Below are positions 50,770-50,907 of a stretch of 64,000 nt of DNA, one piece after another. Position numbers and translations under genes: made by a program. The notes beneath the pieces are model-generated. The model ran no database searches. It saw only the letters and a program-made list of their open reading frames with translations, and had not been told where the DNA came from. The stretch is from Chitinophagaceae bacterium (GTDB lineage: Bacteria > Bacteroidota > Bacteroidia > Chitinophagales > Chitinophagaceae), in the NCBI GenBank assembly GCA_025360525.1, contig JANYCA010000144.1, positions 12,071-76,070 of the forward strand, read 5' to 3'. The stretch's first letter is position 1. Every line of letters begins with the position of its first letter.

Positions 50770-50907
50770 ATGTATAATTTTTCACTAAAATGGTTTGATA
50801 AAAAGTACGCAAATGTTTTAATCTCTTTATGGTACTTGTTTCTCTTATTGCTGGTTTTTCATTATTTACATTCTGATAACGGACGATTTAAATACATTGG
50901 GTTTTAA
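50770..50907 (+). CDS. DltX-like 45-aa membrane peptide (not in the ORF track)
   Basis: MYNFSLKWFDKKYANVLISLWYLFLLLLVFHYLHSDNGRFKYIGF*: one TM plus C-terminal FKYIGF, 11 nt after the MBOAT stop. Confidence 0.75.
   Translation: MYNFSLKWFDKKYANVLISLWYLFLLLLVFHYLHSDNGRFKYIGF

Follow-up and report, generated by a model that had tools for sequence, protein, structure and literature searches.

The window, that is, the whole stretch of 64,000 nucleotides from a Chitinophagaceae bacterium that was analysed, contains an open reading frame (ORF) of only 45 codons directly behind the remains of a gene for a short MBOAT. The questions raised by this locus are whether the ORF is a gene at all, whether its product could serve as an acyl shuttle of the DltX type, and whether it belongs to a pathway that still operates in this organism. 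In the Dlt system, DltB moves D-Ala from DltC to the invariant Tyr of the C-terminal FXYXXF motif of DltX, which passes it to DltD (PMC12148441). In other bacterial MBOATs, this motif is part of the protein itself, at a C-terminus extended by two helices, and PatA auto-acetylates the Tyr of its own fused FXYXXF motif (PMC12148441). The reading favored here, with a probability of roughly 70%, is that the ORF encodes a microprotein of an 'F-R/K-Y' family that stands last in a Dlt-like module and is the proposed shuttle of that module, and that the copy in this genome is a relic of an acquired cassette that has been inactivated.

The features of the locus are collected in Table 1. An in-frame stop three codons 5' of the ATG at 50770 leaves this ATG as the sole possible start, which lies 11 nt downstream of the stop of the MBOAT frame (50756-50758). 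The translation of the ORF is MYNFSLKWFDKKYANVLISLWYLFLLLLVFHYLHSDNGRFKYIGF. Its first 13 residues are basic (K7, K11, K12) and are followed by a predicted transmembrane (TM) helix and a C-terminal hexapeptide that contains the putative acyl acceptor, Tyr42 (codon 50893-50895). The sequence-only reading of this DNA had described an intact 45-aa ORF with one TM helix and the C-terminus FKYIGF, and the coordinates and translation confirm that description. The six frames of the window contain 598 ORFs with lengths of 25-90 aa, and this is the only one that ends in F.Y..F or F.Y..[FWL], while 0.1 and 0.3 such ORFs, respectively, are expected from composition.

Table 1. Features of the module, its lesions and its surroundings (positions are those of the window)
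Feature	Position	Strand	Basis or detail
Tape-measure protein	33081-34565		PF19268
2204-aa ORF in contractile-injection-system locus	34605-41219		ORF
PG_binding_1 protein	41212-42156		Domain match
AAA ATPase gene, closes contractile-injection-system locus	42281-43600	+	PF00004
Left copy of ~80-nt direct repeat (3' end of AAA ATPase gene)	43520..43597	+	Alignment
Gene 1: unknown N-terminal domain (~450 aa) and AMP-binding adenylation domain, pseudogene	44071..46868 (approx.)	+	tblastn with intact 955-aa L025 ortholog
Gene 1, lost start: no ATG/GTG/TTG between TAA 44068 and 44236	44068-44236	+	Sequence
Gene 1, 1-nt deletion in C-run	44543-44546	+	tblastn frame switch at CDLNA|PLP
Gene 2: adenylation enzyme fused to carrier domain (DltA-DltC-like), pseudogene	46861..48717	+	PF00501/PF13193; intact 618-aa orthologs
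Gene 2, nonsense TAA	46903-46905	+	Ortholog CAA
Gene 2, nonsense TGA	47602-47604	+	Ortholog TGG
Gene 3: predicted membrane-anchored SGNH protein (DltD-position), pseudogene	48720..49637	+	Ortholog motifs, fold search
Gene 3, nonsense TAA	49014-49016	+	Orthologs W/TGG
Gene 4: short DltB-type MBOAT, 374 codons, pseudogene	49634..50758	+	TIGR04091 LTA_dltB and PF03062 on fragments; intact 376-377 aa orthologs
Gene 4, nonsense TAA	49709-49711	+	Orthologs Q/CAA
Gene 4, nonsense TGA	50435-50437	+	Orthologs W/TGG, W of WHISLSSW
Gene 4, 1-nt deletion rewriting last MBOAT residues	~50751	+	Alignment to intact orthologs
Microprotein gene, intact, DltX-like 'F-R/K-Y' family	50770..50907	+	ATG start, TAA stop, 45 aa
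Predicted single TM helix, residues 14-33, ANVLISLWYLFLLLLVFHYL, with conserved W21-Y22	50809..50868	+	Read from sequence
C-terminal hexapeptide F40-K-Y42-I-G-F45, directly before stop	50887..50904	+	Sequence, family positions
Right, degenerate copy of repeat, 14 nt after microprotein stop; marks right end of cassette	50921..50998	+	Alignment

Conservation of the ORF was assessed at orthologous loci. A scan for MBOAT orthologs with one genome per species returned four close orthologs, in which the MBOAT is 76% (L025, a Chitinophagales MAG), 62% (L026, Pedobacter gandavensis), 50% (L027, a Sphingobacteriia MAG) and 44% (L028) identical to that of the window. All four are accompanied by an ORF of 45-48 aa that begins 3-6 nt after the MBOAT gene or overlaps its stop, and these peptides end in ...GRFKYLGF (L025), ...GRFKYAEW (L026), ...ARFKYGGW (L027) and ...AGFRYLGL (L028). 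A word-based search with the peptide itself retrieved a single cluster, a peptide of 84% identity (P0001) on five metagenome contigs (L109-L113) whose DNA is 88% identical to positions 44604-50923 of the window. The sequence-only reading had made its proposal depend on conservation of the peptide downstream of homologous MBOATs, and the same microprotein does follow the MBOAT in every orthologous module fetched (L025-L028, L109-L113). In an alignment of six of these peptides, residues M1, Y2, K11, W21, Y22, L28, V29, F40 and Y42 are invariant, and the ORF in the window keeps all nine. Furthermore, the small ORF has a dN/dS of 0.24 when compared with L110 and of 0.11-0.36 when orthologs are compared with one another, values that point to purifying selection on the microprotein. 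The ORF at 50770-50907 is a real, conserved gene for a single-pass membrane microprotein and not a chance frame.

The wider family was found only by exhaustive profile search. The six-sequence profile was searched against 1.84 billion cluster representatives at a cut-off of E ≤ 1e-3, and 118 proteins were recovered, 117 of which are 44-63 aa long, so that the family comprises at least 117 clusters at 50% identity. The ORF of the window matches the ortholog-built profile with E = 5.9e-25 in the search of sampled genomes, and it is the sole hit of the family HMM in a six-frame translation of its own 4.9-Mb genome (E = 1.5e-16; next best 0.077). Across the 117 members, the tail has G or A at position -8, F at -6 (113/117), R or K at -5 (97/117; R in 84, K in 13), Y at -4 (115/117) and L, I or G at -3. 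The last residue is W in 39, L in 33, I in 16, F in 10 and Y in 9 of these proteins. An MY start is found in 102 of the 117 and a WY pair within the helix in 109, giving the consensus MY..L...(K/R)..A....WY(TM)...G.F(R/K)Y.x.(W/L/I/F/Y)-COOH. The mean net charge over the family is +1.8 for the N-terminal segment and 0 for the C-terminal segment which, by the positive-inside rule, suggests an N-in/C-out topology that would place the tail outside. On this profile evidence, the microprotein is a member of a widespread, unnamed family, called 'F-R/K-Y' here for its tail. It also shows the other features by which the family was delimited, namely a length of 44-49 aa, the MY start, WY in the helix, a G/A-x-F-R/K-Y-x-x-hydrophobic end and a gene placed right behind that of a short MBOAT.

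The sequence-only reading had also expected that standard annotation would overlook such a peptide, which turned out otherwise. Genes for the orthologs are present in the JGI, Logan and RefSeq PGAP annotations (WP_316839181.1 in P. gandavensis; MGA8204230.1 in Woeseiaceae), always under the name 'hypothetical protein'. The microprotein gene is consequently unnamed rather than unannotated.

The genes that precede the microprotein gene offer insight into the kind of module to which it belongs. In intact orthologous modules, the products are 935-955, 618-622, 295-305 and 376-377 aa long, followed by the peptide, and the order is an optional large adenylation enzyme, an adenylation-carrier enzyme, a membrane-anchored SGNH protein, a short MBOAT and, last, the microprotein. 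The translation of gene 2 in the window contains a carrier-type serine motif (GWDSM), and the two fragments of gene 4 match the DltB model TIGR04091 with E values of 1.9e-39 and 4.1e-14. Gene 4 lacks a fused F-x-Y-x-x-F tail. The assignment of gene 3 is drawn from several lines of evidence. The Ser of a G-x-S-L motif and the His of a D-GG-H motif are invariant among its orthologs and are present in the window as G-S-S-L and D-G-G-H. An AlphaFold model of an intact ortholog (pLDDT 77.7) has a helix at residues 8-34, and Foldseek places SGNH/GDSL hydrolases at the top of its matches (E = 8e-6), with Enterococcus faecalis DltD (6o93) at rank 48 (E = 0.011). Pfam yields only a sub-threshold match of gene 3 to DUF1574, and a PDB sequence search with the gene 3 alignment gave nothing meaningful. 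The model and motifs thus support an SGNH fold with the Ser, the His and an N-terminal membrane anchor, and leave a kinship to DltD specifically unsupported. Judged from these domain matches, the gene setting is Dlt-like, with adenylation and carrier functions, an SGNH protein and a DltB-type MBOAT.

The more distant members of the family that were looked up occur in the same module. One module (L114) encodes adenylation enzymes of 1028 and 612 aa, a 315-aa protein, a 376-aa MBOAT and a 45-aa peptide. This module (L114:8173-16138) lies within a polysaccharide-synthesis locus with Polysacc_synt_2, several glycosyltransferases and sulfotransferases, a setting that hints at a surface glycan as the acylated molecule and is the sole hint so far. 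The products of another module (L118) are 612, 308, 366 and 47 aa long, and a JGI contig with a distant family member encodes proteins of 322, 380 and 45 aa. In a Woeseiaceae MAG (L116/L117), the order is adenylation enzyme, MBOAT, sulfotransferase-like protein and 47-aa peptide, and the sulfotransferase-like genes (L116:7084-8004, L117:3874-4794) match Sulfotransfer_3 and not an SGNH family. In that lineage, the acceptor enzyme may have been replaced, or its fold may have diverged.

The case for the peptide as the source of the shuttle tyrosine, Tyr42, is made most strongly by the complementarity between motifs in cis and in trans. This complementarity was examined in 80 fetched MBOAT loci, which were divided into long (≥414 aa, n = 72) and short (340-411 aa, n = 8) MBOATs. 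A C-terminal F-[ILV]-Y-x-x-F was found in 71 of the 72 long MBOATs, and the sole exception (L056) runs off the end of its contig, so that its C-terminus is unseen. None of the eight short MBOATs has an F-x-Y-x-x-F tail, and a same-strand microprotein ending in F.Y..[FWL] adjoins seven of them, downstream in L025-L028, L030 and L099 and upstream in L029. Of these, L029 and L030 have GDSL/SGNH genes next door, and L029 also has an adenylation enzyme. As background, the 1.1 Mb examined contain 9,967 other small ORFs, of which 7 have an F.Y..[FWL] ending, and these 7 are scattered and share no common features. The short MBOAT without an adjacent microprotein of this kind is a 340-aa protein of a Saccharibacteria MAG (L096:7743-8765), which may be truncated or may use a different tail.

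From the observed conservation, adjacency, motif and complementarity we infer an acyl-tyrosine chemistry and an outward-facing tail, and the microprotein is most likely a DltX-like shuttle, a reading that is well supported. The earlier claim of a DltX-type acyl shuttle is upheld in architecture, motif, context and cis/trans complementarity; it does not carry over to sequence kinship, as the DltX models of Pfam (PF12459) and NCBIfam are silent at E ≤ 10 and the last residue is mostly W, L or I in the family. Alternatively, the microprotein could belong to the short MBOAT as a subunit with a structural or regulatory task, acting in its stability, assembly or gating, with the tail used for docking only. 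Conservation and adjacency would fit any obligate subunit, and this alternative also draws on the variable terminal residue and on the finding of no significant sequence relation to DltX or to the fused tails. However, the near-invariant residues of the tail are the very F and Y of FXYXXF, at equal distance from the C-terminus (PMC12148441), and the presence of the motif in cis in 71/72 long MBOATs and in trans beside 7/8 short ones is hard to explain for a mere stabilizer, which makes a subunit role of this kind unlikely.

If the microprotein is the shuttle, a four-step mechanism can be proposed for intact modules, modelled on DltX and PatA. First, the adenylation-carrier protein would activate an acid and keep it as a thioester in the cytoplasm. 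Next, the MBOAT would pass the acyl group across the membrane to the Tyr near the extracytoplasmic C-terminus of the microprotein (position -4). The tail of the microprotein would then swing to the SGNH enzyme and acylate its Ser. Finally, a glycan that is secreted or part of the envelope would receive the acyl group from the SGNH enzyme.

In the genome under study, such a pathway could hardly run. The orthologous modules are all intact, and here the four partner genes are all interrupted by the lesions listed in Table 1. The genome encodes five other MBOATs, all five of which end in FIYFQF, and these fused motifs leave the peptide without an alternative partner. With the partners interrupted and the other MBOATs fused, no functional pathway that includes the peptide was found in this organism, and the peptide is probably an intact leftover without a partner. 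The sequence-only reading had taken the peptide to be the missing fifth component of its cluster. That description suits the intact orthologous modules; in this genome, the four partners are pseudogenes and there is no intact system for it to complete. At about one lesion per kb, an ORF of 138 nt can be expected to stay unhit in about 87% of cases, so that its intactness is uninformative on function here, and the 45-codon gene would owe its survival solely to its small size as a target. The dN/dS of the partner genes against L110 is 0.08-0.19, and the window has 88 lineage-specific amino-acid changes compared with 60 in L110 (p = 0.026). Together, the low dN/dS and the modest excess on this branch make the inactivation look recent.

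The nature of the lesions deserves comment. All five stops derive from the CAA or TGG of the intact relative via C>T or G>A changes only, and the TGG>TAA change at 49014 takes two adjacent G>A changes, with one frameshift in 6.7 kb alongside the stops. For plain decay, it is odd to see five stops that arose by substitution beside one indel. Relative to L110, substitutions overall show nothing unusual in their spectrum, with 411 transitions and 349 transversions. A mutational process with a bias to transitions, or one that produces tandem GG>AA (CC>TT) changes, may have been at work. Immediately behind the cassette, a GH3 glycoside hydrolase gene (51005-53153, minus strand) is split into two overlapping ORFs of 331 aa (N-domain) and 397 aa (C-domain and Fn3-like), while its relatives are single frames of 715-728 aa. 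This gene is probably frameshifted as well, which would extend the decay beyond the cassette.

A cluster that still functions here, with the microprotein as its live fifth component, would require the stops to be errors of assembly or consensus, to reflect strain heterogeneity or to be read through. It is to this possibility that the single frameshift beside five stops, the retained catalytic motifs and the low dN/dS of the large genes against L110 (at dS of 0.3-0.9) might be credited, but low dN/dS is also expected if inactivation is recent, and the branch to the window is mildly accelerated. The five TAA and TGA codons are independent and fall at Q or W codons of all the intact orthologs. 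Lesions of this kind, together with a frameshift, the absence of a start and a deletion of 1 nt at the C-terminal end of gene 4, are not typical assembly errors. It is unlikely that the stops are artefacts of assembly or consensus, and a live cluster is quite improbable overall. An alternative genetic code or read-through was rejected, as TAA and TGA both occur within the frames of these genes and also serve as their terminators; neighboring genes of 1,036-2,204 codons are open under table 11, which also speaks against recoding. No standard suppressor tRNA was found in the genome. On a contig outside the window (C40:435-841), two degenerate tRNA-Lys-like copies with mismatched acceptor stems adjoin tRNA-Lys(ttt); ARAGORN interprets their anticodon loop, which is 8 nt long, as 'atta' (Asn|Stop), and they are not credible as suppressors. 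Finally, the frame could be imagined to lie open by coincidence in the untranslated spacer 3' of the MBOAT gene and to end in F-x-Y-x-x-F by accident, but this is refuted by adjacency, profile family and dN/dS and is next to inconceivable. It is true that the frame is short and AT-rich and goes unnamed in Pfam, NCBIfam and PHROG-type classifications, but only 0.1 such ORFs are expected in the window, the protein is kept across MBOATs of 44-88% identity at dN/dS well below 1, and it has 117 homologous clusters of the same length, with orthologs called by independent gene callers.

The borders of the module bear on its origin. The last position of DNA homology to L110, the intact relative, is 50923, which lies 16 nt beyond the stop codon of the peptide, and the ~80-nt repeat that flanks the module suggests insertion by target duplication. 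A search for orthologs in 24 congeners found none, and the family was found in 3 of the 401 sampled genomes of the phylum. Taken together, the flanking repeat, the lack of orthologs in these 24 congeners and the 3/401 incidence indicate that the peptide gene is the last gene of a mobile, patchy cassette. The module would then be a horizontally acquired 7.4-kb cassette that was inserted at the 3' end of the ATPase gene of the contractile-injection-system locus and was later inactivated.

What the family may mean for bacterial acylation is a broader matter. The acyl-tyrosine shuttle has only recently been shown, for DltX and PatA. The proposal put forward here, which is held with slightly more confidence than doubt, is that F-R/K-Y microproteins are trans Tyr shuttles of an undescribed, carrier-fed machine for acylation of the Gram-negative envelope or polysaccharides, carried by a mobile cassette of 4-5 genes and that, together with the other stand-alone peptides, they point to a general rule by which a Tyr shuttle, fused or separate, belongs to every bacterial MBOAT acyltransferase. 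If true, this runs against the published statement that DltX-like microproteins are missing from the non-Dlt MBOAT pathways (PMC12148441); in the searchable literature, such microproteins outside Dlt are not described and are stated to be absent. It would also mean that the W, L or I at the terminus and the basic residue at -5 reflect co-evolution with a divergent SGNH partner. From the distribution of the modules, the trans-shuttle solution would appear to exist in Gram-negatives too, in modules with adenylation and carrier enzymes of their own. A practical rule for annotation follows, namely that an MBOAT of ~375 aa without an F-x-Y-x-x-F tail should be expected to have an adjacent partner gene of 35-50 aa. 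As the cluster is dead in this genome, no phenotype of the organism is attributable to it. The cultured P. gandavensis holds an intact module.

Comparison with known systems places the microprotein close to DltX in form and apart from it in sequence. The PF12459 and NCBIfam DltX models have no match at E ≤ 10 to the peptide of the window or its four orthologs, and PF12459 run on six frames of the whole genome finds nothing at 50770-50907, whereas the control recovered Bacillus subtilis and Lactococcus lactis above the cut-off. Pfam likewise gives no DltX match for the unrelated stand-alone peptides of L029, L030 and L099. An hhalign comparison of the F-R/K-Y family with the fused tails of 70 long MBOATs gave a probability of 1.7%, which is not significant. 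Neither the silent DltX models nor this comparison supports common descent with DltX or with the fused tails. By these profile comparisons, the peptide is DltX-like in architecture, motif and context and lies outside the DltX sequence family (PF12459).

Similar to DltX, the microprotein has ~45-49 aa, one TM helix and a C-terminal hexapeptide, predicted to be extracytoplasmic, with F at -6 and Y at -4. The DltX tails are FIYNEF in Lactobacillus plantarum (PMC13653941) and FLYFGF in Streptococcus thermophilus (PMC11035591), compared with FKYIGF here. The F-x-Y-x-x-F motif is strict in the peptide of the window and relaxed at the last residue across the family (F in 10/117). The gene neighborhood is similar to that of DltX as well, comprising an adenylation enzyme and carrier, an SGNH protein and a short DltB-type MBOAT, and a role as acyl-Tyr shuttle is presumed. 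In contrast to DltX, which is encoded by the first gene of dltXABCD, the microprotein is encoded by the last gene of the operon, directly after the MBOAT. The R/K at -5, the W, L or I that mostly occupies -1, the N-terminal MY and the intramembrane WY further distinguish the F-R/K-Y family from DltX. DltX serves D-alanylation of teichoic acids in Gram-positives, whereas the hosts of the F-R/K-Y family are Gram-negative (Bacteroidota; Woeseiaceae). Adenylation and carrier functions are fused, unlike in Dlt, and many F-R/K-Y modules have a second, larger adenylation enzyme.

The likeness to the fused tails of long MBOATs (PatA, AlgI-type; PMC12148441) lies in the F-x-Y-x-x-(aromatic/hydrophobic)-COOH ending after a TM helix. 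In these long MBOATs, the motif lies in cis on ~73-86 extra residues that form two helices, and acyl-CoA is used without a carrier protein. Here, in contrast, the MBOAT stops at 374-377 aa and the motif is provided in trans. The stand-alone peptides of L029 (Phycisphaerales, RFFQYEGF), L030 (Eubacteriales, TFIYQAF) and L099 (Gammaproteobacteria, IFIYNNF) share this architecture and adjacency; they differ from the F-R/K-Y family in giving no profile match, in their F-I/F-Y-type tails and in their other feeding enzymes. The class of mechanism is thus already known, and what is new is a sequence family in the role of DltX and a new type of module.
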